Part shown: one piece after another, positions 3,273 through 33,949 of the stretch
How the letters are laid out: every line of letters starts with the position of its first letter
Position numbering within the stretch: the first letter of the stretch is position 1
IMG/VR virus record: IMGVR_UViG_2895055527_000002
Location: 1 to 64,000 of that record
Direction: 5' to 3' (one strand)
Length of the DNA stretch: 64,000 bases
Origin: a virus
Taxonomy: Duplodnaviria > Caudoviricetes
Notes under the pieces: model-generated
Seen by the model: the letters and a program-made list of their open reading frames with translations, nothing else
The model's database searches: none
Told to the model about the DNA's origin: nothing
Position numbers and translations under genes: made by a program

Positions 3273-3658
3273 GTCGCCGCCAGGAGCAACGGGCTTCCAA
3301 CATGAAGCCGTCACTACAGGCTCGTCGTTCCATTTCGGGAGTACGAGCGTAGATTGCCCACCGCGGCGGAATTACGTTTGCATGGCAGCGTCGAGGGTGC
3401 TTCGCGATTGCGTAAACCACTCCATGTCCGCTGTCTGTTGCTACGATTGTGCAACTCGCTAGCAATCAGCTTGTCGCGGATGATGTGGTGTTTTCTGTGT
3501 TTGCGAGTCGGGAGACTCCGCGGAATCCTTGGGGTTTAGCGCTCGTCAGTGAAAGACTTGGGCGGACGATCTGTTCAGCCCTTTTAAGCAATCAGTTCCT
3601 AAAGTTCTCGCGGAGTTGGCCAATCTATAAGAATATTTATGGAATCGGATTCTTAGTT

Positions 3659-4261: not shown

Positions 4262-4411
4262 GCTGGCTTTGGACTAGCAGCGCTGTAGGGTGGCTTCGAA
4301 AGTTGATCCAGGTACAACCAGTTCACGATTTCAAGCTGCCCGACTTAGGCGGAGAGATCGGCGAGACTCGTGAGTAGCCCGACGATTCAATATTTTGGAT
4401 TGAGATGCACT

Positions 4412-5680
4412 ATGTCTTCGCTAGAAATTTACTCAGATACCAAATTCGTCGGCACCCTTGCGGACCAGCGAGGCAGGCAGCTGAGCATTGAGTTCTTTGT
4501 GCGGATTGACAATGCTGGGGAGCTTCACCTGAGGTTTGAATCCATTTCAGAACCGGGTATTGCATTTGAACTAGTCGCGCACAATTTTGGCGCGGATGAC
4601 CTGACGTTGTACCTGCACCTTATGGGGACATCCGACACCGGAGAGTTTTCAAGCCCCGATTTCTACTTGACCGGTAAGCGTTCGGACGGGGCTCGTTCTA
4701 ATCCGATGCTTACATTGGCGGGGCGCTGTATGTCCGCGAGAATCACGCGAAAGAGCGAAAGGTCGGAGTTGCGCCCAGCGGCGGTGGCCTTCTATACGAA
4801 CGGATTCAAGACGTTCACCGCGCTCAGAACTGAGAATGAGCATGAAAAGTTAAGGATGTTTGGTCACCAGTTCGGGGAAAAGCATGATCCGCCGACTGCC
4901 GGTCAAGTGGTTCTTGTTAGCAAATTGGAGGTCCCGTCCGAGGGGTGGTTCGATGGGGCTGTAAATTCGCTTCGACATGTCGCGCGCGTGATGTCGCTTG
5001 CCCTAGATGTATACATTGAACCTCGCGTTATTCTTGAGCAGTATCCTGATGTCGACGTGTTCAGTGTCGACGCGTTTGGCCCTTCGCCCCAGCCGCACGT
5101 AGCGCCATTCAGTTTTGTGCAGCTGCCCAGCATATTCGAACATGCATTTGCAATGACACGCGATGAACGCAGCGCGTTTGAGTCGTATGACTTGCCCATC
5201 CGGTGGTTGGTCGCCCCCAGCCACTACGACGAGGCGCGGCACATCGGAGCCATGACCGCTCTGGAGGCTATTCTTTCTCGCGTTAGCGGGGGAGTCTTGC
5301 TTGGTAAGGCAGCGTTTGCGCGACTTAGAAGAAAGCTCGCCGCGGTAATCAACGAGGAGGGGCTTTCAGACAGTTTGGTTGATTCGATGTGCCGAAAACT
5401 CCCAGAGTTGAATCGCCAAGCGCTGGGTGACAAGCTCAAAATCTACCTGATGGAACATGACGTACGCGTAGACGACTTCCCCATGGACGTGTTCGGAAGC
5501 ATCATCCCCGCGCGAAATGAGGTTGTACACAGCGGTATTGGCAGAGATAGACATGAGGACATCACCCCATACATGTACGTTGCACGTGCGCTGGTAACGC
5601 GGATGATCCTCCGTGCAGCAAACTACCGCGGCCCGCTTCGGTGGCCCAATGGTGACGGATTTACTCAAGTGAACTTATGA
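4412..5680 (+). CDS. ApeA-like HEPN-domain protein, putative anti-phage RNase
   Basis: C-terminal HEPN motif RNEVVH (RxxxxH) preceded by AMTALEAIL helix; beta-rich N-terminus; alternative start 4370. Confidence 0.75.
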   Translation: MSSLEIYSDTKFVGTLADQRGRQLSIEFFVRIDNAGELHLRFESISEPGIAFELVAHNFGADDLTLYLHLMGTSDTGEFSSPDFYLTGKRSDGARSNPMLTLAGRCMSARITRKSERSELRPAAVAFYTNGFKTFTALRTENEHEKLRMFGHQFGEKHDPPTAGQVVLVSKLEVPSEGWFDGAVNSLRHVARVMSLALDVYIEPRVILEQYPDVDVFSVDAFGPSPQPHVAPFSFVQLPSIFEHAFAMTRDERSAFESYDLPIRWLVAPSHYDEARHIGAMTALEAILSRVSGGVLLGKAAFARLRRKLAAVINEEGLSDSLVDSMCRKLPELNRQALGDKLKIYLMEHDVRVDDFPMDVFGSIIPARNEVVHSGIGRDRHEDITPYMYVARALVTRMILRAANYRGPLRWPNGDGFTQVNL

Positions 5681-6384: not shown

Positions 6385-7332
6385 CTATTGGATTCGCTCC
6401 ATTAGTGTGGCCCAAAGATACTCGGCTGCCCCAGACTCGGAGAGCTGACTTTCCGCGGTGCCGGACATGCTCATCATGGGTTTGAGGAATAGCTTCTGGC
6501 TGTCCGCCCCGACCGTGAGTGCCTCATTGAAGCTATTCGAGTAAGCCGAGATGTTGTTGGAGTATCGAATTTCGGCATGCCCTCGGCCATATCCACCTAG
6601 GGAAATGGCGCACTGAGTCACGCACTTTCCCTCCTTGTATATGCTCGCAGTGAAGCTGCGTGAGTCGATTCGCTCAAATCGGCCTTTGAAATCGGGATGA
6701 CGCTCCTGCAGTGCTGATAGCGAGCCTTCAAAGAAGGCTGCCATAAAATTGAACGCATCAGCGATGTAGGTATCCCTCTCCAGTTCTGAAAAGTCTTTCC
6801 GTACGCGCAAGTTACTGGAGCGCGGAGTGGTCTCCGCCGGACGGATTCGGACCTCGTTTGCTGCGGAGGGCTTAGAGTGCATTGACCGTTTGAGCCCAGT
6901 GCTTTCAAGGCTTTTTCGGATTGCCTTTGCGATGTCGGTAAATGCCTCATCCCGGTTTGGCCACGACGTCACCGGTCGTGCATCTTTAGGTAGCGCTAGC
7001 ATGTCAGCAAAGGGGGCCGTTTGCCAGTCACACTGGCGCAGAATCACGGCAATTGTGCGGGCTTCCCCGTTACGGCTACGCTCGAGCGCGCGGCTCATCT
7101 CCTTGGAGTAGCAATATGCCGAGTTGATAAAGTCGGCACTCACCAGAAGCAGAATAACGTCGGCTCCTTCCAACTGCTCAGAGATGCTGTTGTCGATGTT
7201 GTCTCCGGCAACAATCCTCCGGTCATGCCAAGTTTCAATAAGTCCATTGCGCTTCAACATCGACAGATGTACTTCGAGTTGATCTCGAAGATCTTCATCA
7301 GCGTGACAGTATGAGAAAAACAAAGAAGCCAT
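6385..7332 (-). CDS. TIR-domain protein (TIR_2-like) with an uncharacterised C-terminal domain
   Basis: FFSYCHAD..WHDRRIVAGD..ILLLVSADFINSAYCYSKEM (catalytic Glu retained); ATG at 7332. Confidence 0.88.
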   Translation of the reverse strand: MASLFFSYCHADEDLRDQLEVHLSMLKRNGLIETWHDRRIVAGDNIDNSISEQLEGADVILLLVSADFINSAYCYSKEMSRALERSRNGEARTIAVILRQCDWQTAPFADMLALPKDARPVTSWPNRDEAFTDIAKAIRKSLESTGLKRSMHSKPSAANEVRIRPAETTPRSSNLRVRKDFSELERDTYIADAFNFMAAFFEGSLSALQERHPDFKGRFERIDSRSFTASIYKEGKCVTQCAISLGGYGRGHAEIRYSNNISAYSNSFNEALTVGADSQKLFLKPMMSMSGTAESQLSESGAAEYLWATLMERIQ

Positions 7333-8539
7333 TGTCAGTCCTGGAGTCGGCAAGAGTTTAAGTGGCACTCGCTAAGTTTGAACATTAGCATGAAGCCTGA
7401 CTCGCACGACGGACAACGCTACTTGCTCCCACATTTCGAAATCGCCGCTCGCATTCGCGAGGATCATCTAACGGCAGAGGAACGATGTAATCCCTTACGC
7501 GGTTTCCCGATTCTAGTGTGGACCCGGGATTGGTCGAGTTTCGACGTGCGTATCGACGGGAACGTCTAGGTCAAATGTTCAAACACATGGCGACGACGGT
7601 TGGTGACGCGAACGAAGGACGATCGTCCGCTTCCCCTGAACATCAGGCACACCTGCCTGCACGCGACCGATTGAAAATGGTTTGGCCGATGGCTCACGCC
7701 TGTTTCTCGTGGAGGATTCCGGGGGCTCCGCGCGAAGTTGGCTCGGCTCCTGTCGCTTGGTGGTCTGCGATTGCCGTGCAAGCCTCGGATCGGCCGATCC
7801 AGGAGGTAAAGCAGGTGTTGCTTCCAGGCATTGCGTTGACACTGCTTATGGAATCCTGAATCCATTGCGGCAAACTTGACCGGTCGAGCACGCGAGGCCG
7901 CATAGACCTGCTTGAAGGTCCCAACGTCCGAGTATGCCCCTGGGGTGCTTGGTCGTGTTAGCCGCGATCATGAGCTTGCATTGGGAATTAATGCCTCGGT
8001 CATCGCAATGCTGGTGGGCGCTGCACTGAACTACTTCATTCCCGAGCAGGCAACTTTCCATTGAGCGAGGACGTATGTGGGGCGGCTCAAGGAGTCGATA
8101 ATAGGCCGGCTACTGCTGGCCGGGCTACGTCTGATTCGCAATGGGCATGCAACGGCCGCGAACGGCGACGATACACATCAGCGTTTCGACCAAATGCGCC
8201 ACTTTGGAAATTTGCGGACATCAATAGCGAAGCATGCCCACTGTGAAATTACCGACGATGAGCACCGGCCGAAGACTTGGTCCATTAATCAGGGCGCTCG
8301 CAACGGCGCCGGTGGTGCGGTGCCGGAGTCCAGTACTCACTGCGAGATATGAGACAAATTCCCTCGCCATCAAATTGGCGCGTGCATGCCTCGTTGCGAA
8401 GGCGAGAGTTTCCAGAGCGACGGAGTGCAATGCCCTACCTCGTTGTCAAAAAAATCGAGTAACATCCGACAGAAAAATACCCCCATTGTCGCATTCGATA
8501 TGCTCTCCATGCCGAAGTCTCGGGAAAACGGGAGTCGAA

Positions 8540-10629: not shown

Positions 10630-11469
10630 ATGACGGGGGCTTTTTTTAACGTTGTTGTTGATGACATTGACCGAAAGCCGGCACTGACTGGCATCTGTGC
10701 AGGATATGAGCAGGGCTCGTGGAGGGTGCAACAGCTTGCCACCGTGTTATTCCGCTCTCTTCCGGACTTTTGTCTTCGTCACTCAGAATGCAGGGACATT
10801 TCGGTCGACAACGCGATGCAACTGATTTCCTCGGCGGCAAAAACGATGTATCAGACTGAGAAATTCAAGAGTCGGGGGGAGTTTGGAGAGCTGATTCTGC
10901 ACGTCGTACTCAAGCAACTCTTCAACACACTGCCAGCGATATCGAAAATATTTTTCAAAGATTCCGTAAATAACACCGTGAAGGGCTTCGATGCCATACA
11001 CGTGGTTCCCACAGCAACCGGCTTGCAGTTGTGGCTTGGCGAAGTCAAGTTCTATACGGATATTTCCAAGGCAGTCGACGACGTTTGTAAAGAGCTTGAT
11101 GTTCACTTCTCTCGAGAGTACTTGCGCAACGAGTTTCTTCTCATCAACCGAAAAATAGACGACACATGGCCGCATGCGGAGCGCCTTAGAGCGCTGACTG
11201 CGGAGACCACGTCGTTAGACACGGTATTCGAGACGGTCTGCGTCCCCGTACTTCTCACATATGAAAGCTCGACGACAGCGAAGCACGCCGCACTAAGCGA
11301 ACAATACAAAGCAGAAATGCTCATTGAACTAGAGAAGCATTATTCCCGCTTTGTCAGCAAGAACCGCCTTACGACAGTGACTATCCGGCTAATCCTCTTC
11401 CCGCTTCGGGCAAAAGCCCTGTTGGTTGATGAGCTCCACCGAAAACTGGGGGCTGCACAATGCCTCTGA
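10630..11469 (+). CDS. hamA: Hachiman nuclease HamA (DUF1837)
   Basis: GEFGELILH..KGFDAIH..LWLGEVKFY PD-(D/E)xK-type motifs; overlaps the helicase start. Confidence 0.9.
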   Translation: MTGAFFNVVVDDIDRKPALTGICAGYEQGSWRVQQLATVLFRSLPDFCLRHSECRDISVDNAMQLISSAAKTMYQTEKFKSRGEFGELILHVVLKQLFNTLPAISKIFFKDSVNNTVKGFDAIHVVPTATGLQLWLGEVKFYTDISKAVDDVCKELDVHFSREYLRNEFLLINRKIDDTWPHAERLRALTAETTSLDTVFETVCVPVLLTYESSTTAKHAALSEQYKAEMLIELEKHYSRFVSKNRLTTVTIRLILFPLRAKALLVDELHRKLGAAQCL

Positions 11470-13577
11470 CCGTCGAGAGCCTTCGCAAACGCATCCAGTC
11501 GCTGGGCGACAATTCCGCCGGCGGAACCTTTGACCTTCTACGCGATATCGCCACTTACATAAATCGTGTCCGAGATACGTCTTCCGCACCGACGGCTCAA
11601 GAACTGGTGGTACGCCTGCTCGATGCCCGTACTCGCCTCGTGGGTTACGAAGACATTTTGATCGAGTTCATTCGTGACGCGGGCCTCTTTCCTTATCTCG
11701 AACCCGCGAAGCTTAGCCTGAGTGACACACTCGCTTATGAAGCTCACCGCCCAGGTGCCAACGCAAGGACAACAGTATTCCACCGGATGCAGGCAAAGGT
11801 GTTCCATACGCTTATGACCGGCCGAAGCGTTGTGCTTAGCGCTCCAACGAGCTTTGGAAAGAGTCTTATCGTTGATGCCATCGTCGAGTCGAACAAGCAC
11901 ACAAACATCGTAATCGTGGTGCCCACACTTGCGCTTCTCGACGAAGTCCGCCGAAGGCTCGCTCGGTTCTCACATTTGTACAAAATCATTACTCACTCGT
12001 CACAGACACCGGGTGTTCGCAATATTTTTGTCCATACGCAAGAGCGCGTGCTTGAGAATAAGAACATCCAAAATGTGGACTTCTTCGTCATTGATGAATT
12101 TTACAAACTGAACCCGAAGCAGGACGTTGAGCGTGCTCAAACCCTGAATCTGGCGTTTTACAAGTTGGCACAACAAGCTAAGCAGTTCTATATGCTCGGA
12201 CCAAACATCGAGGGCATACCGTTAGCGTTCGAAAATCGCTTCGATTGCGTCTTCGAAAGAACCGATTTCAACACCGTTGCGTCCGAGGTTCATCGCATAA
12301 ACGCTGATGACGATGTCGAGCACGCATTGCAGTTGTGCGCTTCCCTCCGAGAACCTACGCTGATTTATGTTCGATCGCCAGCACGAGCCAAGCAATTTTC
12401 TGCTCGCCTTGCGCAGGTGCTTGGACCACTAAATAACGGATTCGGCGCAATCCACGCAGCTGACTGGGTGAGAGGTAACTATCACCCGGAATGGTCGTTC
12501 GCCACAGCACTCGACCGGGGCATTGGGATTCACCACGGACGATTGCCACGAGCTCTGGCGCAAATGGTCGTTCGCGAATTCAACCAAGGCACGCTGAAAT
12601 ACCTTGTTTGCACATCAACGCTAATCGAAGGAGTCAACACGCGCGCGAAGAACGTGATCATTCTTGACAACAAAATTGCCTCGAAGAAATTTGACTACTT
12701 CACGTTTGCGAACATTCGTGGCAGGTCTGGGAGAATGTTCCAGCACTATATTGGAAACGTCTATTTGTATCACGAGCCACCGCAGCAAGAGCTGCCGCTC
12801 GTCGACATTCCAATCATCACGCAGACGGAAGATGCGAGCGATGCACTCCTCATCCACATTGAGCCCAGCGAGCTCACCGAAGCGTCACGCGAACGCGTTG
12901 CTCGATATTTAGAGAGCCCGCTCCTTGACATCGAATTGTTGAAGCAAAATGCCGGGATATCGCCAGAAGCTCAGTTAGCTGTTGCGCAAGCGATAGTTCG
13001 AGATTTGTCCACTTCCCACACTATGCTTGGCTGGAGAGGGTATCCGGAATGGGAACAGTTCAAATGGACCTGCGAGCTCATTTGGGAGCACTTTACGGAC
13101 AGGCGCCGACGGAGTGGCGCGAGTAGTGGAGCTCAGTTGGCGTTCTTGCTTTGGAAAGTACTCGCCGCCAAATCATTTCAAGACGTTGTCGCGGTATTCC
13201 GCACGGATGGCATCCACATTGAGGATGCAATAGATTTGGCCCTAGACTTCCAGCGCCAATGGTCGGAGTTCAGGGCGCCGAATCTGCTTTCTGCGCTAAA
13301 CCGAATTCAGCAACATATCTTTCGCCGCTTCAACCTGACGCCAGGCAACTATGATGCCTACATCGCGCACATAGAGAACTTGGGGAGGAGCCCCGTCGTA
13401 AACGCTCTCGATGAATATGGGCTACCGGTTCAAATCGGGGAGGTAATCTGGAGAGCGACCGGCGTTCCCGATTCGCTCGATGATGCGTTGTCTCGATTGC
13501 GACAACTTGACTTATCTACAGTCAAGTTGTCACCGTTCGAGTTTGCCCTTGTTCAAACAGTTCAGGCGACCCTGTAG
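11460..13577 (+). CDS. hamB: Hachiman Ski2-like SF2 helicase HamB
   Basis: Walker A APTSFGKS, DEFY, TSTLIEGVN, NIRGRSGR; coupled to the DUF1837 gene. Confidence 0.9.
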   Translation: MPLTVESLRKRIQSLGDNSAGGTFDLLRDIATYINRVRDTSSAPTAQELVVRLLDARTRLVGYEDILIEFIRDAGLFPYLEPAKLSLSDTLAYEAHRPGANARTTVFHRMQAKVFHTLMTGRSVVLSAPTSFGKSLIVDAIVESNKHTNIVIVVPTLALLDEVRRRLARFSHLYKIITHSSQTPGVRNIFVHTQERVLENKNIQNVDFFVIDEFYKLNPKQDVERAQTLNLAFYKLAQQAKQFYMLGPNIEGIPLAFENRFDCVFERTDFNTVASEVHRINADDDVEHALQLCASLREPTLIYVRSPARAKQFSARLAQVLGPLNNGFGAIHAADWVRGNYHPEWSFATALDRGIGIHHGRLPRALAQMVVREFNQGTLKYLVCTSTLIEGVNTRAKNVIILDNKIASKKFDYFTFANIRGRSGRMFQHYIGNVYLYHEPPQQELPLVDIPIITQTEDASDALLIHIEPSELTEASRERVARYLESPLLDIELLKQNAGISPEAQLAVAQAIVRDLSTSHTMLGWRGYPEWEQFKWTCELIWEHFTDRRRRSGASSGAQLAFLLWKVLAAKSFQDVVAVFRTDGIHIEDAIDLALDFQRQWSEFRAPNLLSALNRIQQHIFRRFNLTPGNYDAYIAHIENLGRSPVVNALDEYGLPVQIGEVIWRATGVPDSLDDALSRLRQLDLSTVKLSPFEFALVQTVQATL

Positions 13578-14085: not shown

Positions 14086-14123
14086 ATAAGCAACGCGGCG
14101 ATTCTGGCGTGCGCGAAACAGGG

Positions 14124-15116
14124 ATGTCAAAGAATATGACGTACTACGCAATCATTGAGCAGCGCTGCATCCAAAAAGACGGCAGTCAATCGGAAATCTA
14201 TGAAAAAAATGTCGCCGAGCATGTTTGTGTTTTCAAGGGAATGTATCGTCTTGGTGAGGAGTTCGATAAGTGTGTTGAGGAAGCTTGTGCGGCGTTGTCT
14301 AAGGTCGCCAAGGATTTGCCGAAAGTCCTGGTGATAAGCGCTCACGGCCACAAGCTTTCTGGCGACCTCGAGATACCCGGGCGGATAGTCGATGGAGACG
14401 AAGTGTCGATCTCCCTTTTGCGCCATGCTAACGCGTTTCAATCTATCCCGGACCAGACCGTAGTTCATTTGAGCTCGTGCTTCGGGGCATACCCGAATGC
14501 GATCACAATTCAACGAGCACGGCATAGCGCTCCGCCAATCATTGGACCGCTTGTCAACATCAACTTCGATGATGCCACGGCTCTTCACACGGCTCTGCTG
14601 AATTACGTCAATGGGCGAGGGATTGGGGACGCTCAATTGCGCGCGTTCGTGGACCATCAACAACAAGCGCTTTCGATCCACGATCCTTACTGTGGACGCT
14701 ATGTCATTGGACTTATTGACAGCACCGGAGCTCAACATCCGCAAGGCGCGGTCGGGGGACAACTGGCGGCGGAAGTTGAAACTTCTCGTATTATCTTTGT
14801 GGTAGATAGCGTCGACTATTCGACCTTGTCGGTGGAAATAGACTCGGGGAGCGGACGCGCCACGAATCGCGCTACGTATAGTCCTCCAGGCGATGTCGCG
14901 AAGGGGTTCTGGTTGGCTGTTCCGTCTGGAGGAAAGCATACGCGGCTACGCGTCCCTCTCAGGGCTTTGGCCGGGTTCATCGAAGGTGAAGGGTACGAAG
15001 CGATGCGAGGCAGGAAATTCTCTGCTCTGTATCAAGTCGCCGGCATCTACAGTGGTGACGTCTGGGCCGAGTTGCTCGAAGTGAGAGAGATCGGCAACAG
15101 TACAAACAACTCGTAG
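14124..15116 (+). CDS. Caspase/CHAT-like cysteine protease with an unknown C-terminal beta domain
   Basis: His-Cys dyad contexts VLVISAHG and VVHLSSCFG, followed by IIGP..INFDDA. Confidence 0.6.
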   Translation: MSKNMTYYAIIEQRCIQKDGSQSEIYEKNVAEHVCVFKGMYRLGEEFDKCVEEACAALSKVAKDLPKVLVISAHGHKLSGDLEIPGRIVDGDEVSISLLRHANAFQSIPDQTVVHLSSCFGAYPNAITIQRARHSAPPIIGPLVNINFDDATALHTALLNYVNGRGIGDAQLRAFVDHQQQALSIHDPYCGRYVIGLIDSTGAQHPQGAVGGQLAAEVETSRIIFVVDSVDYSTLSVEIDSGSGRATNRATYSPPGDVAKGFWLAVPSGGKHTRLRVPLRALAGFIEGEGYEAMRGRKFSALYQVAGIYSGDVWAELLEVREIGNSTNNS

Positions 15117-15313
15117 ATCTCTGGATCAAAATCGAAGAGCTCCACGAGTTGGCAAACTTCCCCGGCATAGAGAAGAATCCGCGGCACCTCGAAGTTTGCA
15201 GACGGCGAGCCACTGACCTTGGAGAGCTCCAAATATGGCTAGGAAAAAGAGTTCGCGGTGTCGATGTCGGCGCGCAGCTTTGTTAACGAATCAGCAGGAG
15301 AAATGAAGGAATC

Positions 15314-16139
15314 ATGAATCTAAGACTGACCGAGGCCGTAGCGTTCGAAAAGTTCGCGATGCGTTCAACCGTGCCGTTGTTTTTGAATTGGGATGGACGG
15401 GGAGTCGCTTTGGTCGGGACGGGAACCCTCTTTGAAATAGCGGGCCGGTTTTTCATCGTCACCGCGCTCCATATTTTCGCTGGCTTCGCAGAGGCGCATT
15501 TTCAAGAGCTCGCCTTTTCCGACGATCCGATTGACGGAAACCTGCATACGTTTGGCAGCACGACGATCGCGAAAAGCGTGCCGGATCATCACGACGTAGC
15601 CGTCGTCGAACTCTTGGACCAGACCACCATAGGGAAACTCAGGACTGGTTGGCGGTTTCTCACACTCGACAATGTTGGGTTGCCGACTTCGACCCTTCGT
15701 GACGGGGCGCTTCTTCTCGCTGGCTACCCGCGCTCAGACCATTCGCCTGAAGATGGGTGGGTAGCTAATGGGAAGGTCCGTGGCCGCTTCGTCAGTGCGT
15801 ACAGCCAGCGAATCCCGACCATCCCCGCTAACGCTGACCAGCCCGCTGATCTCGGTATTGATATTTTCTGCGACTATGGACGGACGGCCACCACGTTGGA
15901 CGTGGCGCGACATTGCCACACCGCCACTGCCGGGAGCCAGCGGGGCATCTGTGTGGGAATTCAACGAGTCGACGGACGGGATTTGGACGCCTGAATCGTC
16001 CGCTCGCGTGGTCGCTGTCCAGTCGACCTACCTCGAAGGCCAATACTTTCGTGCGAAAAGCTGGCGTGTCGTCGCAGAGGTGATGCGGCTTATAGACGCC
16101 GAACTGGCAGAAGCAATCAACGTTACCCTTAGGGTCTAA
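15314..16139 (+). pseudogene. Trypsin-like serine protease split by a single-base frameshift near 15903
   Basis: GTGTLF..IVTALH (His), DVAVVEL (Asp) and LAGYP in the first frame; LPGASGASVW (Ser) in the next frame; deleting 1 nt at 15902-15905 fuses them. Confidence 0.75.
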
Positions 16140-16426: not shown

Positions 16427-16656
16427 CCGACCGCGTACGTTGGTGATTCTGGGTCTCGGTCAATCGAAGCCAACTACACATAGCAGTTAGCGGGAGATGC
16501 GCTCCTGCGAGGGGAGGCACACCTATCCCCTTGAGAGGCAGCTGCGCGCCGGAGTGGTAGGGGGCCGATTATCGAGATCACAAAGATTAGGGAGGCGTGT
16601 CGGGGGCAAAATCTGCGCGACTTTACTGGGGATTTTCGGGAGTGTTTTCGCAGAAA

Positions 16657-16756
16657 TACTGCGTACGGCAAGCTGGGCTACTATGAACGGCAAGTAAAAC
16701 TACTACGGACGGCAAGTGAGTGGTGATGTATGTCACCAAATTTGCCAAAATCCACA
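16657..16756. repeat. Three direct repeats TACTRYGNACGGCAAG at exact 22-bp period, plus a TGGTGA-N6-TCACCA palindrome
   Basis: Copies start at 16657, 16679, 16701; palindrome 16721-16738; possible terminal CCACA at 16752-16756. Confidence 0.8.
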
Positions 16757-16787
16757 GCTGCATCACCCGGGGCCCTTTCCCGTCGGC

Positions 16788-17030
16788 TCACTCTTCGTCT
16801 GACGCAGCAGAGTGGTAAGCCTCTATCCCGATTTGCTGGCCGGCTTGATATGCCAGCACCGAGTCGGTTCTCACAAGCCGGTTGCTCCCAGTTATATGGT
16901 GTAGTTTGAGCTTGCCTTGGTCGATGAGCTTGGCGACGTGCGTCTGGGAGACGAACAGCATCTTCGCTGCGTCCGCGATGGACATGAATTCGTCGTCCTC
17001 TCGACTCGACTTCTTCTTACCTTTCGACAT
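16788..17030 (-). CDS. Excisionase-like (HTH_17) DNA-binding protein
   Basis: FMSIADAAKMLFVSQTHVAKLIDQGKL..NRLVRTDSVLAY; AAGGA before ATG 17030. Confidence 0.75.
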   Translation of the reverse strand: MSKGKKKSSREDDEFMSIADAAKMLFVSQTHVAKLIDQGKLKLHHITGSNRLVRTDSVLAYQAGQQIGIEAYHSAASDEE

Positions 17031-17245
17031 CGTGGTGTCCTTGGTGGCCAATACACGATTTGAGCCTAGACTAAGCCACCTACAAAGACAATCGAGTAAG
17101 CGGAACCCGTGAGCTGCGGCTACGTATCGGGCAGGCAATCGTAGTTCATGCGGCATTGAGCCGTAGGGTCAGACGTAGTCGCGGATTATGCGGCTCCAAT
17201 TGACGTGGCCTCGTATCTCGGTTGCTGTCGTCAACTGTCGATGAT

Positions 17246-19051
17246 TCAGGCCGCGGCAGCTGCTAGACGCGCGGCATAGTCGTCCATTGCGCTCACAATG
17301 TTCGCTAGGAGAGGGTGGAAGCCAGCCCAATCTAGCTCTTTGGCTTGCTTCGCGACAAATTCGTAAGCGAAATCAGCCTTGCCCACCGACGTAGTCGAAC
17401 TAGACTCTGATGAGAAGTCGAAGGGCTTCCCGTTAAGGCCCTTCGCGATGTCCACTTGTGAAAAGAGGTCCTCGATGCTTCGTTCTTTGGCGTTGCCTAG
17501 AGGAACCGGCACGATGTATAGGTTGGCGAACAGGTGGACGAAGGACTCGTCTCCAGTAATTGTTAACTTCAACGTGTCTTTGACCACCTTGAAGACTGTT
17601 TTGCCACCACTATCGTTGTCAACAATGAAAATGACCGGTTGCTTGCCCCCAGGTGACTTGAACTTCGCCAGTTCGCCATGATAGGCACGAATCAGGTTTC
17701 CTAAATTTGCCCCGCCGCCGCTACCGCCCCCCAAAATGGTGATGGTGGAGTAGTTGGGGAGATGCACCATCTTCTTTTTCTTGTGTTTTCGTGCGTACTT
17801 TAGTAGTTGAAAGGACAGCACGTCTTCCTTTTCGACATTTTTCTTTACCAGGCTAGGGAAGAGATTTTTGCTTTGATGTACCGCATTGCTGATATACACA
17901 CCATCCGTCTTTCCCTCACACACTATCAGCGGTACGGTGTTCGCATAAAAGCGGGTGTATATGAGGAAACGCCGATAGATGGCCAAATTGCCTGTGGGCT
18001 TCTTTTCGTTAGCTTGCTGCCCTGGATAGTTGTATGGATGCCTTTTGATATCTGTACGAAAAACGCTGTCAACGGAATGGATAAAACCCAACATTCCATG
18101 AAGCTTCGCCGGCGTTCCTTCTTCCTCGAACGTCTGTAGTTTGCCATGCACGTCAGGGACTTGGCGTTTGACTGTGTATTTGCCGTTCTTGACAAGGGAC
18201 GCCACGTAAGCCCGCACGAGATACCTATACTCGGTGCTGACGTTTACCTTCTTGTTCACGACGAGTCCCGTGACCTGTTGTCTGGAGTCTCGATATTGCA
18301 TTCGGGTTTTCTTCTCGTTGATTGAGAAGCCGCTTCGCAAAATCAGTCGCTGGAGTTCTGCTCCGACGTGCCAGCTGTGTTCTTTGGAGTCATCACGATA
18401 CGCAATCGCCGCGGGAAATACTTCCTTGTTCGTAGAAAACGTGAGGTCGTCGGCGTATCTCGTGTAAGTGCAACCGTGCATCTGGGCTAGCTTGGAAAGG
18501 TGCGCATCCAAGATTCCGGCAATCATGTTGGATATGACCGGTGAGCACGGGCTGCCTTGGGGAAGCACCCCATCTCGGCAGGCTATATGGGCGATGGTCG
18601 TGGCTACTTTCGCATCAAACGCAAAATATCTATCGTTGATGAGGAATCCTCGGATTCTCTGCCCCGAGATGCTCGGAAAGAAATCCTTGAGGTCAAGATT
18701 GAACACGTATCGCCTGTTGCGGTGTGCAGCAGCATTCGTGAGAATGCTTTTTCCCGGACGGAAGCCATGAGAAGCTTTATTAGTTCTCTTGGTCAGCGCG
18801 GCAATATCCACGAGACATTGTTCCAGCGCAGCAGCAAGTTTGCGTTGTAACGACTTTAACTCGGATGTGGGAGCACAAATATCCCGGCTGCCTCCGCTAC
18901 TCTTGGGAATCGAAAATACGTTATACCTTTCAGGATCTTTCTTGACGTAGAGAAGGTACGTCAGGTCTTGGTGCTTGATGTCAAGAAGCATCGCGAGCTC
19001 TGCACGCGATTTGGCGCCTTGGAACCACTCAAGTGTATTTTTCGGAAGCAT
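17246..19051 (-). CDS. Retron reverse transcriptase fused to a TOPRIM nuclease (Ec67/Eco2-like, type I-C)
   Basis: Region X NAAAH, LPQGSPCSP, YTRYADD, region Y VTGLVVN; TOPRIM CEGKTD, IVDNDSGG, IEDLF, GKADFA. Confidence 0.93.
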   Translation of the reverse strand: MLPKNTLEWFQGAKSRAELAMLLDIKHQDLTYLLYVKKDPERYNVFSIPKSSGGSRDICAPTSELKSLQRKLAAALEQCLVDIAALTKRTNKASHGFRPGKSILTNAAAHRNRRYVFNLDLKDFFPSISGQRIRGFLINDRYFAFDAKVATTIAHIACRDGVLPQGSPCSPVISNMIAGILDAHLSKLAQMHGCTYTRYADDLTFSTNKEVFPAAIAYRDDSKEHSWHVGAELQRLILRSGFSINEKKTRMQYRDSRQQVTGLVVNKKVNVSTEYRYLVRAYVASLVKNGKYTVKRQVPDVHGKLQTFEEEGTPAKLHGMLGFIHSVDSVFRTDIKRHPYNYPGQQANEKKPTGNLAIYRRFLIYTRFYANTVPLIVCEGKTDGVYISNAVHQSKNLFPSLVKKNVEKEDVLSFQLLKYARKHKKKKMVHLPNYSTITILGGGSGGGANLGNLIRAYHGELAKFKSPGGKQPVIFIVDNDSGGKTVFKVVKDTLKLTITGDESFVHLFANLYIVPVPLGNAKERSIEDLFSQVDIAKGLNGKPFDFSSESSSTTSVGKADFAYEFVAKQAKELDWAGFHPLLANIVSAMDDYAARLAAAAA

Positions 19052-19062
19052 TTAGATAGAGA

Positions 19063-19193
19063 GCCCCGTAGACACTCCAACGCGTATTGGCTCCTGCTCC
19101 ACATGGCGCCAATCAGGTTGATATCGATGCAGCATAGGTCCTAACATTGTTGTCAAGTGCCATGATTCATGGCAGAAATTCTGTCTACGAGGC
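19063..19193 (-). ncRNA. Retron msr-msd RNA
   Basis: 12-bp terminal duplex GCCUCGUAGACA/UGUCUACGGGGC (one G-U); unpaired G at 19181; msr hairpins UGCCAUG-AAU-CAUGGCA and CUUGACA-ACAA-UGUUAGG; msd hairpin about 19078-19120. Confidence 0.85.
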
Positions 19194-19200
19194 GACTCCG

Positions 19201-19209
19201 ATAATATCA
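19201..19209 (-). promoter_or_regulatory. Extended -10 promoter of the retron
   Basis: TG-A-TATTAT, 7 nt upstream of the first base of the msr repeat. Confidence 0.6.
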
Positions 19210-19468
19210 AAGTGCTCTCCGACTCGACAGCAGCATCTCATCTCTTGCGTTGTGCTGTAGCTGCGGGAGTTGCGTTGGATTTGCTCTTGAGTTAGATTCG
19301 CTTCTGCGTCGCAGAACGTCGGCGCGCTGCCCACCCCTTGGGGCTTTCCGGCCGCAGTCAAGCTTTCGCATCGTTCCAAATCCAATCTTCAAAATATCTG
19401 AACCCGGTCTCCGGGCGTCAGAGAATTCGGGTGGGCGTCTCTGACGGAACTCTAAGGAGTGACGGAAC

Positions 19469-21121
19469 GTGGACACATCCGATTTTCATTTTCTCGACGC
19501 CAAGCACAAGGTAGAGCGGCAGGCTCGACGTCTTCAAAAGCATCTAAACGTGCGTCTTCGTGTCGCGCGTGCCGTGCTGGCTGAGGGGCCGTACCAATGT
19601 AAGAGTTGGGAAAGCCTTCTCGCGCGACTCGCTTGTCCAACAACACATATCAGAATGTTGGCATCACTACCTGGTGACAACAGGGCCGAGCACTATTTGT
19701 CTGCAAATTTGGACGGCATTGCCCGGTCCATTGCCCAGCAAATAATGCCTAACACCAATCTTGCCGGCCTTTACGACATTGTGAGGAAAATGTTCCTCGC
19801 GAATTGTGCCCCGACAACGCTTGAGCATGTCGCGCCGTCACTCCCCCCACTTGCGTGGGAGCCTGCGAATCTTGGTCCCGATGCCTACGCGGTGATGTAT
19901 GCAAATGCGAACGTGAACGGCAATGCATTCCGAGTAGTCGCTACGCGAACTTACCTGCCAGATTATCTCGACTTCGGCGCCGAAGTGGACCACCCGGAAT
20001 TAGCCTATCCGGTTGGGAAGTTCAAAATTGTCTGGACTAACCCCGACGCGTGGCTGGATGCGGCACGAACTTATCTTTTTGCCCCCAAAGATGAGTGGGA
20101 TGTCGATCTGGCTCTCCCGGAAGAAATTCTCGACGAACATATGGCCGCTCATGAGCGGTGGTTCACGAAAGCCCTGGCGACAATGCCTTACCGGGGCGAG
20201 TACAGTGAAGAACTCAACGAGCGTCCCATTCCATACTTTTACAGGGGGGACGCATACTTGCTCTTTGGCCTCCCCACGGTCGGGGGGGTGAACCGGAAGG
20301 CACCTAACCTCGAAGTAGAAATTTCGGCATCGGATGCCAACGGGGGCAAGCTGTTTTCCGTGGAAGGTGTGCCAATGTTGCTCGAATGGAGTAAAGCGCA
20401 AGCCGAATTGGGCGATGACATCGGAGAGCATCGATTGGCAAACACGTTTGTTGATGCAATCGCCTCGGACTCAATCAGTATGTGCTTTGATGTGGGGCGC
20501 ACGGACGTTGGTCCCTCAATCCTCATGCGACCGGCATGCGGTACCGATATCCGCCTTGCCTTGAAGCTTGAGCTGATGCCAACTGCGGGAGAGGAGGCCT
20601 TCGTACTTCGGAGTGATTCCCCGGAACTTGCTGAGATACTCGTCGCGAAGATTGCTGCGCGGCAAATACTGGTCGATAGAACGGTTGCCGCTTGTCCCCG
20701 TTATGCCGTTGCGTTGAGGCTTCCGAGAAATGTAAGGGGACTTCTTCAAGTCGGTCTGGAAGTTCGGATGAATAAGGCTGAAGGTGTACGTTCGAATCTC
20801 ATTCCGACAACATACATCGAGGTGATCGATGACGATTGGGCGATGGTCTACTTCCCTCTGGGCATCACTCTTCTGGCGTTACTCGAGGCACTCGGCAAGT
20901 GGGCGCTAATAGATGCTGTCGTTGACGGCAGGGTCATCCGGCGACCAATTGGTTTTGAGGCTAGCCTAGCGAATGAACCAGCTTGGACGAAAAACCTTCT
21001 AGACTCAGGCCTGAATTTCGACGCAATGTTTTGCGGAGGCAGGAAGATCCCTTTGGGTCGTACCGCCTACGAGTTGCTCCGAACGGCAAGAGTCACTAAG
21101 TACGCACGCGACTTCTACTGA
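19469..21121 (+). CDS. Large hypothetical protein (550 aa) with an N-terminal helical, possibly DNA-binding domain
   Basis: AAGGAG before GTG; N-terminus RQARRLQKHLNVRLRVARAVLA..Y.CKSWESL; no catalytic motif recognised. Confidence 0.75.
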   Translation: MDTSDFHFLDAKHKVERQARRLQKHLNVRLRVARAVLAEGPYQCKSWESLLARLACPTTHIRMLASLPGDNRAEHYLSANLDGIARSIAQQIMPNTNLAGLYDIVRKMFLANCAPTTLEHVAPSLPPLAWEPANLGPDAYAVMYANANVNGNAFRVVATRTYLPDYLDFGAEVDHPELAYPVGKFKIVWTNPDAWLDAARTYLFAPKDEWDVDLALPEEILDEHMAAHERWFTKALATMPYRGEYSEELNERPIPYFYRGDAYLLFGLPTVGGVNRKAPNLEVEISASDANGGKLFSVEGVPMLLEWSKAQAELGDDIGEHRLANTFVDAIASDSISMCFDVGRTDVGPSILMRPACGTDIRLALKLELMPTAGEEAFVLRSDSPELAEILVAKIAARQILVDRTVAACPRYAVALRLPRNVRGLLQVGLEVRMNKAEGVRSNLIPTTYIEVIDDDWAMVYFPLGITLLALLEALGKWALIDAVVDGRVIRRPIGFEASLANEPAWTKNLLDSGLNFDAMFCGGRKIPLGRTAYELLRTARVTKYARDFY

Positions 21122-21667: not shown

Positions 21668-22903
21668 TCATCGCCTTTGCCGCCGATGGCGTTCCAAATA
21701 CATCGAGTAATGCTTGTCGAGCGCGTCCGCAGCAGGTGCATCTTTGAAGCGCTCCGGCACAACCGCAAGTGACTTTCCATCGTACTTCTCATAGTCGGTC
21801 CCTCGGAGTTGTGGCGCGACATGGACGATACTTCGTGAGTCGATGGACAACAGATGGAGGTCAAACAGTGTATGAATGTCTGCTCTGAGCAGAAGTCCAT
21901 TATGCACGTTGTAGTCCGTCAGACGCGAGTGTGGAACGATATGCGCCGCTTCCAGCAGTTCTTCAATCCGTGAACCGGTGACTGCACATCGCGTCCGATA
22001 CGCGGTCAATAGGGCGCGCCGGAATTTAACCTGACCACGGCGTGTCTTGATGGCGCGATTCTGGACTTCGTCGTAGGTGCTATCTTCGTCGTCGGCTTGC
22101 TCAACGGTATTGTCTTCGAGCGTCTTTTCAATTCCACGTACGAGCACGCACTCTCCGTTGGAGAAGTCGTAAGAGTGCACATACCACTCCTGGCCATCCA
22201 GATAGCGCTTTTCAACCTTAGCTGCTTGTTCAGCCCGGTCTTCGCCCTCGGGCCGCCTTCCCGCCCCAACGATCACTCGCACCGGAAGTCGCCGCTCAAA
22301 AGACTCTCGGATAGCAACGTCCAGTGCTTTTCCACGTTGAGCTTGTGTCTTCGCTCGGTTGCGCACGTTTTTTTCTATCGCAAGGTCGGTGGCGATTCTG
22401 GTCCGCTGATCGCTCTCGGCGCGAGCGTTCCGGTCAAAATAGATCCAACCGTCTTCGTTGACCTTGAATTCGCTATGCCACAGACAAAGAACGAAGCCTT
22501 CGGTCACGGACCCGAAGCACCACTCGTAGCAAAAATTTGGATTCGACTTGAAGTCTTCATTCCAGCCGTCAATCGATACCCCCGCGTCTCGGAGAAGATC
22601 GTAAAGTGTGCCTTTCGATAACGGCTTGAGGCTCTCAAGTGACTCTGTAGGAGGAGCATCCGCGCGTCTAAACGTGACGAGTCGGTTGACTTGGTCAAGC
22701 CTCACCTGCCTCCAGCCGTATTCCATCCAAAATTGACCTGGGTGACCATCCTTAGTCCTTGAATTTGCCCAGAATGGCTTGAACCGATCAGCCGTTGGTG
22801 GCAATTCGTTGCCGATAATTTTCTCTATATCGGAAAACGAGAGTGTTACTTCACTGTTGGATTGTGCAGCCAAGTGAGCTGCAAGAGGCTGATATTTTCT
22901 CAT
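21668..22903 (-). CDS. Multi-domain HNH endonuclease, putative restriction/anti-phage nuclease
   Basis: C-terminal RRGQVKFR..CAVTG..LEAAHI..HNGLLLRADIHTLFD; N-terminal KYQPLAAHL..LSFSDIEKIIG..FWAN domain. Confidence 0.88.
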   Translation of the reverse strand: MRKYQPLAAHLAAQSNSEVTLSFSDIEKIIGNELPPTADRFKPFWANSRTKDGHPGQFWMEYGWRQVRLDQVNRLVTFRRADAPPTESLESLKPLSKGTLYDLLRDAGVSIDGWNEDFKSNPNFCYEWCFGSVTEGFVLCLWHSEFKVNEDGWIYFDRNARAESDQRTRIATDLAIEKNVRNRAKTQAQRGKALDVAIRESFERRLPVRVIVGAGRRPEGEDRAEQAAKVEKRYLDGQEWYVHSYDFSNGECVLVRGIEKTLEDNTVEQADDEDSTYDEVQNRAIKTRRGQVKFRRALLTAYRTRCAVTGSRIEELLEAAHIVPHSRLTDYNVHNGLLLRADIHTLFDLHLLSIDSRSIVHVAPQLRGTDYEKYDGKSLAVVPERFKDAPAADALDKHYSMYLERHRRQRR

Positions 22904-24419: not shown

Positions 24420-24836
24420 TTATTCGAAAATGCCATGAACCGTGCCAGCATTTTCTAATACTCGTTTTTCCAAAAATCGCTTTAGTCTGCGTTCGATCCT
24501 GGCGTGTCCGATCGAACCTATCAGATGTCGCAGCATTGCGTCGTCGTCAGGCTGAAGCTCCCCTTTAGTGCGCTCATGATTTAGTTCGGGTCGGAAGATC
24601 CGAATGCACGCTTCCTCATATGCTTGAAGATGTAGCAGGTCGGTTGGCACGAACATCACGTCATCGAACTCTTTGACATTGATGTGTTGGCCGAGTCGTT
24701 GGTAGATGTCTTCTGTCTTTCCTACGTACCTTATCCGCTCGCGCAACAGTAGGAAGTAAATTCCTCGCCGGTTTCGCAAAATCGGGATGTGCTTTAGCCC
24801 TGCGTCTTCAAGAAACTTTTTTTCTTGCATCTTCAA
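24420..24836 (-). CDS. GIY-YIG nuclease-domain protein
   Basis: GIYFLL..RYVGKT..QRLGQH..EEACIRIFRPELN; overlaps the integrase 3' end. Confidence 0.75.
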   Translation of the reverse strand: MKMQEKKFLEDAGLKHIPILRNRRGIYFLLLRERIRYVGKTEDIYQRLGQHINVKEFDDVMFVPTDLLHLQAYEEACIRIFRPELNHERTKGELQPDDDAMLRHLIGSIGHARIERRLKRFLEKRVLENAGTVHGIFE

Positions 24837-26022
24837 TAGCTTGTTGTGAGTGGTTTCCGAACTTCTTCACGGCCTTATTCCCCGCTTCCACGTCCGCTGC
24901 CGGCATCCACCGTCCGTATACTCGCGCGATCATCGTCCAGTCCGCGTGCCCCATCTGCTTTGCAACCCACATCGGGTGTTCGCCCGCCGAAAGCATCATC
25001 GAAGCATAGGTGTGCCGGGTCTGATACGGATTGCGGTAGCGTACGCCAGCCCTTTTGAGAGCGGATTGCCAAATGCGCCAGATCTGATTGGCGCCGGTAA
25101 AGCGCGCTCCCGACCGATCCTTAAAAATTGCGCCGTCTTCTTCGGACAGGAAGGTCAGTGCCTTTTGCGCATGAAGGGCGGCGCTCGCTGGCTCAAGCAA
25201 CCGGATGTCGCGCCGACCCGCCGCAGTCTTCGGGAATTCGGCGACGCCTTTCGCCTCGCGCGTCATCGCGCGACGTACGCGGACGTATCCTCCAACGAAA
25301 TCGATGTCCGACCAGTTGAGAGCGATGAACTCCGAGGTGCGCATCCCGGTCCAGAGCGCAAACTGGATCAGATTTCGATTCCCTCCCGTCAGTTTATCGA
25401 GAATAGCGGCTTGCTCTTGAGGGGAAAGCGGATCGATCTCGTCTTCTTCGATTTCCTTCGGCCGTTCAGCGCGTGCGTAGGTATAACCTGCGAGTGGATT
25501 CGCCTCGATTAATTCGTCTCCTGACGCGTCGCCGAGCGCCGATCGCATGCAGCTTTGGATATTCGCCAGTCGCTTGTTGGAAGCCTTGCGCTCGCGGTCG
25601 TGGTCGATTCCGGCGAGCCAGTCTCTGATAGTCGCGCGCCGGAGATCCGAAAGGGGCAGCTTACCGAATTTCGGGATAACCCAATTGCTCACGATGTTTC
25701 GGTATCCCGTGAATGTTGATGCCTTGATCTCCATCTTCTTCCGGTCTAGCCACTTCTCGAAATACGATTCAACGGTTAGGACGTCACCAGGGCGTTCTGC
25801 AAATTTTGCTGCATGCTTTGAGTCCGGGAACGACTTCACATAGTCAAACTCGCCTTTCTCTATTGCGTGCAGAATCGCGGCCCGGAACTGCGTTATCTTG
25901 CGAGTGTTGGCAGGACAGGGCTTCGCTTTGATCCGCTCGCGGCACCGCCGCCCTTGGTAATGGAAGGTGATTTCATAGCTGGAGTCTGAAACGATGTCGA
26001 CTCCTGTCCTCTTTCTAGCCAT
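24808..26022 (-). CDS. int: Phage tyrosine integrase with N-terminal arm-binding domain
   Basis: TGMRTSE, YQTRHTYAS, MGHADWTMIARVY catalytic motifs. Confidence 0.95.
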   Translation of the reverse strand: MARKRTGVDIVSDSSYEITFHYQGRRCRERIKAKPCPANTRKITQFRAAILHAIEKGEFDYVKSFPDSKHAAKFAERPGDVLTVESYFEKWLDRKKMEIKASTFTGYRNIVSNWVIPKFGKLPLSDLRRATIRDWLAGIDHDRERKASNKRLANIQSCMRSALGDASGDELIEANPLAGYTYARAERPKEIEEDEIDPLSPQEQAAILDKLTGGNRNLIQFALWTGMRTSEFIALNWSDIDFVGGYVRVRRAMTREAKGVAEFPKTAAGRRDIRLLEPASAALHAQKALTFLSEEDGAIFKDRSGARFTGANQIWRIWQSALKRAGVRYRNPYQTRHTYASMMLSAGEHPMWVAKQMGHADWTMIARVYGRWMPAADVEAGNKAVKKFGNHSQQAIEDARKKVS

Positions 26023-33873: not shown

Positions 33874-33949
33874 GATCCTATCGGCCGCACTCTGGCGGCC
33901 GTCACGCCTACGTCATCGGGGGCGTTCCCTCGCCGGGGAGGTGTCAGGT

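Follow-up and report, generated by a model that had tools for sequence, protein, structure and literature searches.

The minus strand between positions 19209 and 17246 of the analysed window (the whole stretch of 64,000 nucleotides, positions 1 to 64,000 of the IMG/VR virus record IMGVR_UViG_2895055527_000002) carries a retron cassette of about 1.95 kb, in which a promoter, an msr-msd ncRNA and an RT-Toprim ORF follow one another. The cassette is a complete, ordinary member of the well-studied Ec67/Eco2 anti-phage retron family, and the probability of its being an intact and self-contained retron of type I-C (Ec67/Eco2 family) is put at roughly 93%. The anatomy of gene and RNA, the family membership, the conservation, the covariation, the intact catalytic residues and the boundaries of the cassette are all direct observations. 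The features are as follows:

19201–19209, minus strand: extended −10 promoter (TG at 19209–19208, hexamer TATTAT at 19206–19201; no good −35)
19182–19193, minus strand: a1, 5′ arm of the terminal duplex (inverted repeat, MFE fold, covariation)
19181, minus strand: predicted branching (priming) guanosine, the first unpaired base after a1, whose 2′-OH would carry the msDNA
19158–19174, minus strand: msr hairpin 1, 7-bp stem and 3-nt loop (inverted repeat and predicted fold)
19140–19157, minus strand: conserved msr segment, foldable as a second hairpin (predicted fold; weak pairing family-wide)
19076–19145, minus strand: msd template, ends approximate, positions inferred from Eco2
19086–19113, minus strand: short inverted repeat inside the msd (arms 19086–19094 and 19105–19113)
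19063–19074, minus strand: a2, 3′ arm of the terminal duplex (inverted repeat, covariation)
19052–19062, minus strand: leader, 11 nt between a2 and the start codon, pyrimidine-rich, without a Shine-Dalgarno core
17246–19051, minus strand: RT-Toprim fusion ORF, 601 aa, stop codon included, open without internal stops
18263–18910, minus strand: reverse transcriptase domain, aa 48–263 (Pfam RVT_1, 2.1e-23)
18446–18457, minus strand: YADD motif, aa 199–202
17276–17944, minus strand: Toprim nuclease domain, about aa 370–592 (alignment to the Ec67 chain)
17903–17917, minus strand: Toprim motif EGKTD, E379–D383
17612–17620, minus strand: Toprim motif DND, D478–D480

The protein had been recognised as an Ec67-type RT-TOPRIM in the initial annotation, and this assignment is borne out by curated models and solved structures. 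The NCBIfam model NF038237 (retron_Ec67_fus) gives 661.4 bits against a curated cut-off of 450 bits, with residues 8–592 on model positions 2–572; the best PADLOC model is RT-Toprim_I-C (6e-202), the full-length I-C models reaching 666–670 bits; and the PDB entries named “Retron Ec67 protein” (9I2F, 9I2G, 9S1F and 9LM3) align over the full length, residues 6–592 to 6–580, with an E value of 3e-108. The start codon is also the one first proposed, i.e., the ATG at 19051, 11 nt after a2. The public protein call in this genome begins 20 codons too late.

In the reverse transcriptase half, Y199, D201 and D202 of the YADD motif are invariant in 22 homologues and A200 is nearly so; N106, A107 and H110 of NAxxH, as well as VTG (260–262), are invariant in the same set. 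NAxxH and VTG are hallmarks of retrons. The YADD numbering is the same in Eco2 (PMC12916289). For the Toprim half, the Eco2 residues used for mapping were E374, D378, D460, D462, S513, E515 and K562 (PMC12405507), and all the catalytic residues mapped in this way are retained, S525/E527 and K558 being present in addition to the two motifs listed above. No variation occurs across the 22 homologues at E379, D383, D478, D480, E527 or K558; S525 is missing from the listed invariant columns. It has been described that motif IV of the type I-C Toprim reads EGxxD and that motif V reads DxD (I-C1 and I-C3) or DxE (I-C2) (PMC7736814). Since the motif found here is DxD (DND), I-C2 is excluded and I-C1 or I-C3 remain.

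Ahead of the gene, the proposed 12-bp terminal duplex is found as an inverted repeat of 19063–19074 with 19182–19193, which is 92% complementary, the sole mismatch being a G-U pair in RNA. A 12-nt repeat is by itself only mildly unusual, as shuffling the 401-nt stretch yields one in 19 of 300 cases. In 75 relatives, compensatory changes occur at 11 of the 12 pairs of the a1/a2 stem, and 98% of cells are paired, so that the duplex is strongly confirmed by covariation. Directly after a1 lies the candidate branching G at 19181, which is upheld by its conservation: the position is G in 74 of the 75 relatives and is flanked by A on both sides in all 75, and it would correspond to rG15 of Eco2 (PMC12405507). 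Folding 19196–19060 to its MFE gives −51.7 kcal/mol (z −3.63; 0 of 200 shuffles as good), with the terminal duplex, both msr hairpins and the msd hairpin in the structure. What decides that the predicted ncRNA exceeds chance is the comparative evidence, that is to say, the covariation of a1/a2 and of hairpin 1 and the A-G-A at the branch site.

Two msr hairpins had been described, and only the first of them is well supported across the family. Hairpin 1 shows compensatory changes at five of its seven pairs, with 99.6% of cells paired in the 75 relatives. The second folds in the window, but just 74% and 57% of its cells are paired across the same relatives, and it is the primary sequence of 19140–19157 rather than the pairing that is conserved. 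In Eco2, one msr stem-loop is followed by a single-stranded stretch, and the segment equivalent to 19140–19157, rG43–rU51, is single-stranded (PMC12405507). The segment here is more likely single-stranded than a second hairpin, and its 3′ half may already belong to the template; the msr probably consists of one conserved hairpin and one conserved single-stranded segment.

In Eco2, rG15 carries dT1, and the copying stops 37 nt past the branching G (PMC12405507, PMC12916289). If initiation follows Eco2, with dT1 on the branching G, the msDNA would start at T19076 and not at 19075, and its 3′ end, near 19140–19146, can only be estimated. The predicted msDNA would be the plus strand from 19076 to about 19140–19146, with a length of 65–71 nt; the earlier prediction (about 19075 to about 19140, 65–70 nt) would be kept in outline and shifted at its start. 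All 75 relatives have GAG before a2. The interior of the msd is hypervariable, with 29–77% identity to relatives versus 84–94% for the msr. As for the msd hairpin of the initial annotation, the inverted repeat is present, but its stability is no better than that of shuffled sequence: folded as DNA it reaches −7.3 kcal/mol (z 0.11), 112 of 200 shuffles being as good, and family-wide the median z is 0.13, with values below −2 in 2 of 75. The long stable msd stem-loop, a classical retron trait, is not seen here. In the cryo-EM account of Eco2, an intermolecular junction is described and no msDNA hairpin (PMC12916289), and therefore a stable msd hairpin may not define the I-C family. Because neither the second msr hairpin nor the msd hairpin has comparative support, the shape of the msDNA is uncertain.

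The claimed extended −10 promoter is likewise present: TG and TATTAT occupy 19209–19201, and the hexamer ends 7 nt ahead of a1. No minus-strand promoter with a −35 was found upstream of a1 by a sigma-70 consensus scan, with which the extended −10 type agrees. Of 75 related loci, 55 have a −10-like hexamer that ends 6–8 nt ahead of a1, and 47 have TG in front of it; the position of the promoter is conserved in the family, and an extended −10 without −35 is the family norm. The homology to the DNA of the nearest relatives starts at 19211–19219, at the predicted promoter.

Between a2 and the start codon, the gap has a median of 18 nt family-wide, and an SD-like core is found in 6 of 69 leaders of up to 30 nt. 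Because the start lies about 7–30 nt behind a2, after a pyrimidine-rich leader, and the SD core is absent in 63 of 69 leaders of the Ec67 family, it may be speculated, with little weight, that the translation of RT-Toprim could depend on the folding state of the ncRNA and on ribosomal protein S1 being recruited. The amount of RT-Toprim would then be tied to how much of its own msDNA is available as a cage. Ribosomal protein S1 is reportedly found on Eco2 msd RNA. As a separate part of the same tentative proposal, the near-random msd interior beside the conserved msr would be the mark of phage nucleases or decoys that drive its diversification.

A covariance-model comparison with Ec67-like ncRNAs had been suggested as a check on the RNA. 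The model R1, which was built from 8 close relatives and has 141 positions, finds a single match, immediately ahead of the RT, in 75 of 81 sources; of the six without a match, three (L017, L020 and L054) have no upstream DNA, and in the other three (L009, L033 and L047) the RT match begins at residue 67–153. It also matches upstream of the RT in four of four distant plasmid loci (E. coli, Proteus, Shewanella and Enterococcus). The ncRNA studied here scores 147.7 bits under R1, level with the best relatives, and is the single match in its own 5.85-Mb genome. The alignment was fitted to the structure of R1 itself and so leans towards it; in this alignment, pairing is seen in 92.5% of cells, compared with 77.7% in shuffles (0 of 500 reach the real value) and at most 43% with the partners slid; double changes occur at 20 of 24 pairs. 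These comparisons support the view that the upstream RNA is one covarying family ahead of Ec67-family RTs, from Burkholderiales to Enterococcus. A scan of 16500–20000 against Rfam with E up to 10 gave no retron family, and two chance-level matches lay elsewhere in the stretch. On the protein side, 6,819 homologues were obtained at E up to 0.001 among 7,999 scored, and in a phage collection the protein search retrieved four unannotated metagenomic records with at most 34% identity over the full length. A whole-cassette blastn search (“distant”) against 5,426 E. coli genomes gave no match.

By analogy with Eco2 (PMC12916289, PMC12405507), from which the making of msDNA and its exact ends, the formation of oligomers, the trigger and the RNA target are carried over, the following course may be proposed. 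The extended −10 promoter would give a single transcript, the 5′ part of which would be folded by a1-a2 pairing. The RT domain would bind the conserved msr, prime on the 2′-OH of G19181 and copy the msd template, about 19076 to about 19145, into a branched msDNA of about 65–71 nt. RT-Toprim and msDNA would then form an auto-inhibited oligomer with the Toprim nuclease caged by the msDNA. Degradation of the msDNA by a DNA nuclease of the phage would free the Toprim to cut tRNA or other RNA, resulting in a translation stop and aborted infection.

The last step is where a different reading has some room: the retron would be the same, while the freed Toprim would cut DNA in the manner of OLD or process its own template RNA instead of tRNA. 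The Toprim fold is common to the OLD, Gabija and PARIS nucleases (PMC12405507), a role in template removal has been speculated (PMC12916289), and the protein is only a distant relative of Eco2. However, RNase activity or tRNA cleavage by the Eco2 Toprim is reported in two independent studies (PMC12405507, PMC12916289), and here the metal-binding residues and the lysine match those of Eco2, so that such an effector is considered rather improbable. Far less probable is a silent or decaying relic, in which the anatomy would be right and expression or msDNA production would have been lost. The poor −35 and the position of the element within a large patchwork of acquired DNA speak for it, as does a look through sequencing runs, which gave no RNA run for this DNA and a single DNA run that may be the source assembly; on the other side stand the uninterrupted 601-aa ORF, the retention of every catalytic residue mapped from Eco2, the RNA score equal to that of the best relatives, and the fact that an extended −10 without −35 is normal for the family.

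Membership in another RT-fusion class (type XI RT-protease, type XII RT-TIR, DRT or group II intron RT) can be given practically no credence. Such a reading could draw on the RT half, which also matches RT-Protease_XI (343 bits), RT-TIR_XII (338 bits) and NCBIfam TIR-RT (293 bits), and on the partly confused use of the labels I-C and XII (PMC12916289). The matches to RT-Protease_XI, RT-TIR_XII and TIR-RT nevertheless end at about residue 329, the scores lie below the curated cut-offs (TIR-RT 293 versus 600, group II 66 versus 300), and the C-terminal half aligns to the Ec67 Toprim with EGxxD and DxD, in addition to the full-length I-C scores given above. In type XI and type XII, the RT halves are closely related (338–343 bits over residues 7–329) and the effectors are a protease and a TIR, whereas the C-terminal effector here is a Toprim. 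Retron Ec86 (Eco1, type II-A) shares the logic of a1/a2 and branching G and has a related RT core (E 2e-26), but it has a separate effector gene, a filamentous complex and no fused nuclease.

The nearest studied system is Retron-Eco2 (Ec67, type I-C1, E. coli), likewise a single-gene RT-Toprim fusion downstream of its own ncRNA, with the same YADD at 199–202 and the same Toprim residues (E and D of EGxxD, DxD, S-x-E and K). Both ncRNAs have the a1/a2 arms and a branching G immediately behind a1; each also has a linker rich in U, a single conserved msr hairpin and a conserved stretch that is single-stranded, and the two msds are similar in length. The distance from the branching G to a2 is 107 nt here and about 104 nt in Eco2 as derived from the papers' numbering; the msr hairpin has 17 nt versus 23 nt (G20–U42) in Eco2, the linker after the branching G 6 nt versus 4 nt, and the Toprim here has an extra segment at about aa 425–440, a gap in the Ec67 alignment. 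The E. coli stand-in for the Ec67 locus was the plasmid family member L082 (585 aa, 630 bits to the Ec67 chain), which is itself not Ec67 and to which the identity by tblastn is 37.5%. Eco2 comes from E. coli, and the member described here from a betaproteobacterium with 62.5% GC. Because the identity to the studied protein is modest, the trigger and the target may differ from those of Eco2. DenB and A1 are nucleases of coliphages.

Whether this member had already been described, a matter left aside at first, can be answered in part. Close homologues in Cupriavidus, Paraburkholderia, Pandoraea and Ralstonia, also of 601 aa and with 79–87% protein identity, are named “retron Ec67 family RNA-directed DNA polymerase/endonuclease” by NCBI; in these records the protein is annotated and the RNA is not, and the RNA has no Rfam match. 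These relatives have the same promoter type and an msr that is 94% identical, with 70–77% identity in the msd interior. A literature search, in part poorly aimed, found no described I-C retron in these genera. The chief value of the cassette lies in annotation, as the RNA half is missed by gene callers and Rfam, and R1 could annotate the ncRNA family-wide, with a reach from Burkholderiales to Firmicutes. No new question is opened by this member alone; as a distant member with a different msd, it offers a test of the generality of the Eco2 model of msDNA cage, nuclease trigger and tRNA cleavage, and the retron could serve retron-based editing tools.

The cassette lies in low-GC DNA, with Hachiman, a ThsB-like TIR gene and a prophage as neighbours, and is placed in a horizontally acquired defence island. 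The divergent 550-aa neighbour (19469–21121) has no match in Pfam, PADLOC, PHROGs or the protein atlas, and when the whole window was searched for direct repeats as att sites, all the families were short, with two copies each, and none was a convincing flank of the island. The DNA matches three relatives (L002, L007 and L008) from 19219/19211 down to about 17268 and no further, which is exactly the cassette, and the flanking genes of the nearest relatives are unrelated to those found here. With the promoter and the RT stop as its homology limits, the conserved unit contains one protein gene and no separate effector. Within the genus, a copy of the retron is present in only 2 of 38 genomes.

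The predicted retron of the Ec67/Eco2 family (type I-C) lies on the minus strand, and its parts were located as listed below.

Parts of the retron, in order along the minus strand
19209-19208, minus: TG promoter extension, read in the sequence
19206-19201, minus: -10 hexamer TATTAT, read in the sequence; a1 begins after 7 bases
19193-19182, minus: a1 arm of 12 nt, the inverted-repeat partner of a2
19181, minus: predicted branching G, directly after a1
19174-19158, minus: msr hairpin 1, with a 7-bp stem and a 3-nt loop, from the fold
19157-19140, minus: 18-nt msr stretch, foldable as a second hairpin
19113-19105 and 19094-19086, minus: arms of a short inverted repeat within the msd of about 65 nt
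19074-19063, minus: a2 arm, complementary to a1
19052-19062, minus: pyrimidine-rich leader of 11 nt, from a2 to the ATG
19051 (ATG) to 17246, minus: ORF of 601 aa

The RNA of 19196-19060 folds at -51.7 kcal/mol (z -3.63), which is equalled by 0 of 200 shuffles, and G19181 is the first unpaired base past the terminal duplex in this fold. The coordinates that the initial annotation gave are therefore correct.

The a1/a2 inverted repeat taken alone is not compelling as evidence of a retron RNA: shuffling the 401-nt stretch 300 times gave a 12-nt inverted repeat of equal quality in 19 cases. It is the comparative evidence that decides whether the ncRNA exceeds chance. An alignment and covariance model were built from the window and its 7 closest relatives, and the relatives searched were 80 loci encoding protein relatives, on contigs from one genome per species. 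Exactly one strong match was obtained for each of 75 of the 81 sources; it is always on the RT strand, and between a few and a few dozen bases separate its end from the RT downstream. The ncRNA is also upstream of the RT in all 4 plasmid loci (E. coli, Proteus, Shewanella and Enterococcus; 24.5-45.3 bits), and the match in the window is the only one in the entire 5.85-Mb genome. Six of the 81 sources have no ncRNA match, and three of them (L017, L020 and L054) have no upstream DNA. In the other three related loci (L009, L033 and L047), the RT match does not begin until residue 67-153, even though 1.5 kb of DNA is present upstream; these may be 5'-truncated retron remnants.

In the 75-sequence alignment, which was fitted to the model's own structure and is thus biased towards it, 92.5% of cells are paired, versus 77.7% after shuffling of columns (the observed value is attained in 0 of 500 shuffles) and at most 43% in partner-slid controls of the same 75 sequences. 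Compensatory double changes occur in 11 of the 12 a1/a2 pairs (98% of cells paired), which bears out the 12-nt terminal duplex, and in 5 of the 7 pairs of hairpin 1 (99.6%). Both the slid controls and the variety of pair types speak for a real covariation signal. At the branch position, 74 of 75 sequences have G, and all 75 have A on either side of it; together with its unpaired place after a1, this upholds G19181 as the candidate branching base. Moreover, the GAG directly before a2 is invariant (75/75), and identity to the seven relatives is 84-94% in the msr and 29-77% in the msd interior.

The two msr hairpins of the initial annotation did not fare equally. Hairpin 1 stands, while in the second (19157-19140) only 74% and 57% of cells in the same alignment are paired, the segment being conserved in primary sequence instead of pairing. 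It has been reported that the Eco2 msr has a single stem-loop (rG20-rU42), that rG43-rU51 is single-stranded and contacts the RT, and that the template starts at G52 (PMC12405507; PMC12916289). By position relative to Eco2, part of the supposed second hairpin would already be template. Similarly, the msd hairpin is present, but its stability is unremarkable: the predicted 70-nt msDNA folded as DNA gives -7.3 kcal/mol (z 0.11), and the family-wide median z for the msd region is 0.13, only 2 of 75 values being lower than -2 (mononucleotide shuffles). This agrees with Eco2, in which msDNA nucleotides 29-50 are reported to take part in a three-way junction and to form no hairpin (PMC12916289).

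In 55 of 75 relatives, the last base of a -10-like hexamer is 6-8 nt away from a1 on its upstream side, and in 47 of the 75 a TG comes before the hexamer (the scoring gave TG a small bonus). Therefore, the predicted extended -10 promoter is a family trait. In the window and 73 related loci, the gap from a2 to the RT start is short (median 18 nt) and rich in pyrimidines (mean purine fraction 0.38); among the 69 leaders no longer than 30 nt, only 6 have a Shine-Dalgarno-like core. S1 has been reported on Eco2 msd RNA (PMC12916289).

For the protein, the best PADLOC model is RT-Toprim_I-C (6e-202, residues 4-598), NCBIfam retron_Ec67_fus scores 661.4 bits against a cut-off of 450, and four PDB entries named "Retron Ec67 protein" align to residues 6-592 (E 3e-108); in Pfam only RVT_1 was found (residues 48-263). 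Type XI, type XII, group II intron and DRT identities were rejected, their matches being confined to the RT half and below cut-offs. YADD is at 199-202, with numbering identical to Eco2. Mutation of Eco2 Toprim residues E374, D378, D460, D462, S513, E515 or K562 abolishes defence (PMC12405507), and by alignment these correspond to E379, D383, D478, D480, S525, E527 and K558; all except S525 are on the list of residues invariant among 22 homologues. The EGxxD and DxD motifs fit subtype I-C1 or I-C3, not I-C2 (motif definitions in PMC7736814). The public protein record for this genome (P0002) holds a 581-aa form beginning at M21 instead of the 601-aa form; the stretch concerned is 18989-19051 on the minus strand. 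Because the family model and the Ec67 alignment begin at residues 6-8, the sequence favours the upstream ATG at 19051 as the start codon.

The anatomy and its conservation were observed here, and the steps beyond them follow Eco2 by analogy, although the relation is judged distant (37.5% identity by tblastn to an E. coli family member that is not Ec67). The RT would use the 2'-OH of the branching G as its primer to copy the msd. RT-Toprim and msDNA would then assemble as a 3:3 complex, with the nuclease caged by the msDNA; after degradation of the msDNA by phage DNA nucleases (DenB and A1 in the Eco2 work), the freed Toprim would cleave tRNA or other RNA, and translation would be halted (PMC12916289; PMC12405507). 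The msDNA is predicted to run from T19076 to about 19140-19146 (65-71 nt), both ends being estimates: the start supposes that, as in Eco2, dT is the first base, here copied from the A of the invariant GAG (otherwise the start would be C19075), and the end is set by the Eco2 stop, 37 nt after the branching G.

Type I-C makes up about 11% of retrons, and a consensus structure of its ncRNA has been in print since 2020 (PMC12916289; PMC7736814). Homologues at 79-87% identity already bear the name "retron Ec67 family" at NCBI. The retron was correctly and well read, its type is already known and its protein family named, and the RNA is the unannotated part; it matches no Rfam family.

The nearest relatives are similar in DNA (76-78% identity) from 19219-19211 to about 17268, with unrelated flanks, so that, judged by alignment, the conserved unit comprises the promoter, the ncRNA and the ORF and nothing else. 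Of 38 genomes in the genus, only 2 have a copy above the cut-off. The cassette has 50.4% GC and the genome 62.5%; it lies in a low-GC tract (49-61%, more than 100 kb) that covers about 185000-300000 of the window's own contig (G000 C1), from about 25 kb before the window to beyond its end (-25 kb to +85 kb in window coordinates).

Neighbouring features
6385-7368, minus: ThsB-like TIR gene (Thoeris ThsB1 model, 5.1e-120)
10630-13577, plus: complete Hachiman pair, the HamA gene (DUF1837, 1.5e-114) overlapping the HamB gene (helicase, 1.7e-235)
14109-15994, plus: 335-aa ORF, without a family match, then a 226-aa weak trypsin-like peptidase (Trypsin_2, 6.6e-05, under Pfam's cut-off)
16788-17156, minus: HTH_17 (excisionase/AlpA-type) gene, some 90 nt past the RT stop
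19469-21121, plus: 550-aa ORF, divergent from the retron promoter
21668-22903, minus: 411-aa protein with N-terminal DUF7662 and C-terminal HNH_2 endonuclease domain (PADLOC HNH model, 3.1e-18)
24808-26022: integrase
24808 to at least 59717: lambdoid prophage (integrase, ParB-like, replication O-like, small and large terminase, portal, major head, tape measure and J-like tail fibre genes)

The HTH_17 gene sits outside the conserved cassette. The ORFs of 2178-5680, beside the TIR gene, have no family matches. The two genes of 14109-15994, which lie between Hachiman and the retron, may form one module. The 550-aa ORF has no match in Pfam, PADLOC, PHROGs or the protein atlas, and may represent a defence gene of the island that is as yet uncharacterised. 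The retron is not within the prophage but 5.7 kb beyond its integrase end, and the defence genes are either prophage cargo or a separate island abutting it. The defence genes and the integrase lie between the two copies of a 25-nt direct repeat (D1; 417-441 and 33884-33908, 96% identity), which are 33.5 kb from each other and could be due to chance or be what remains of an att pair.
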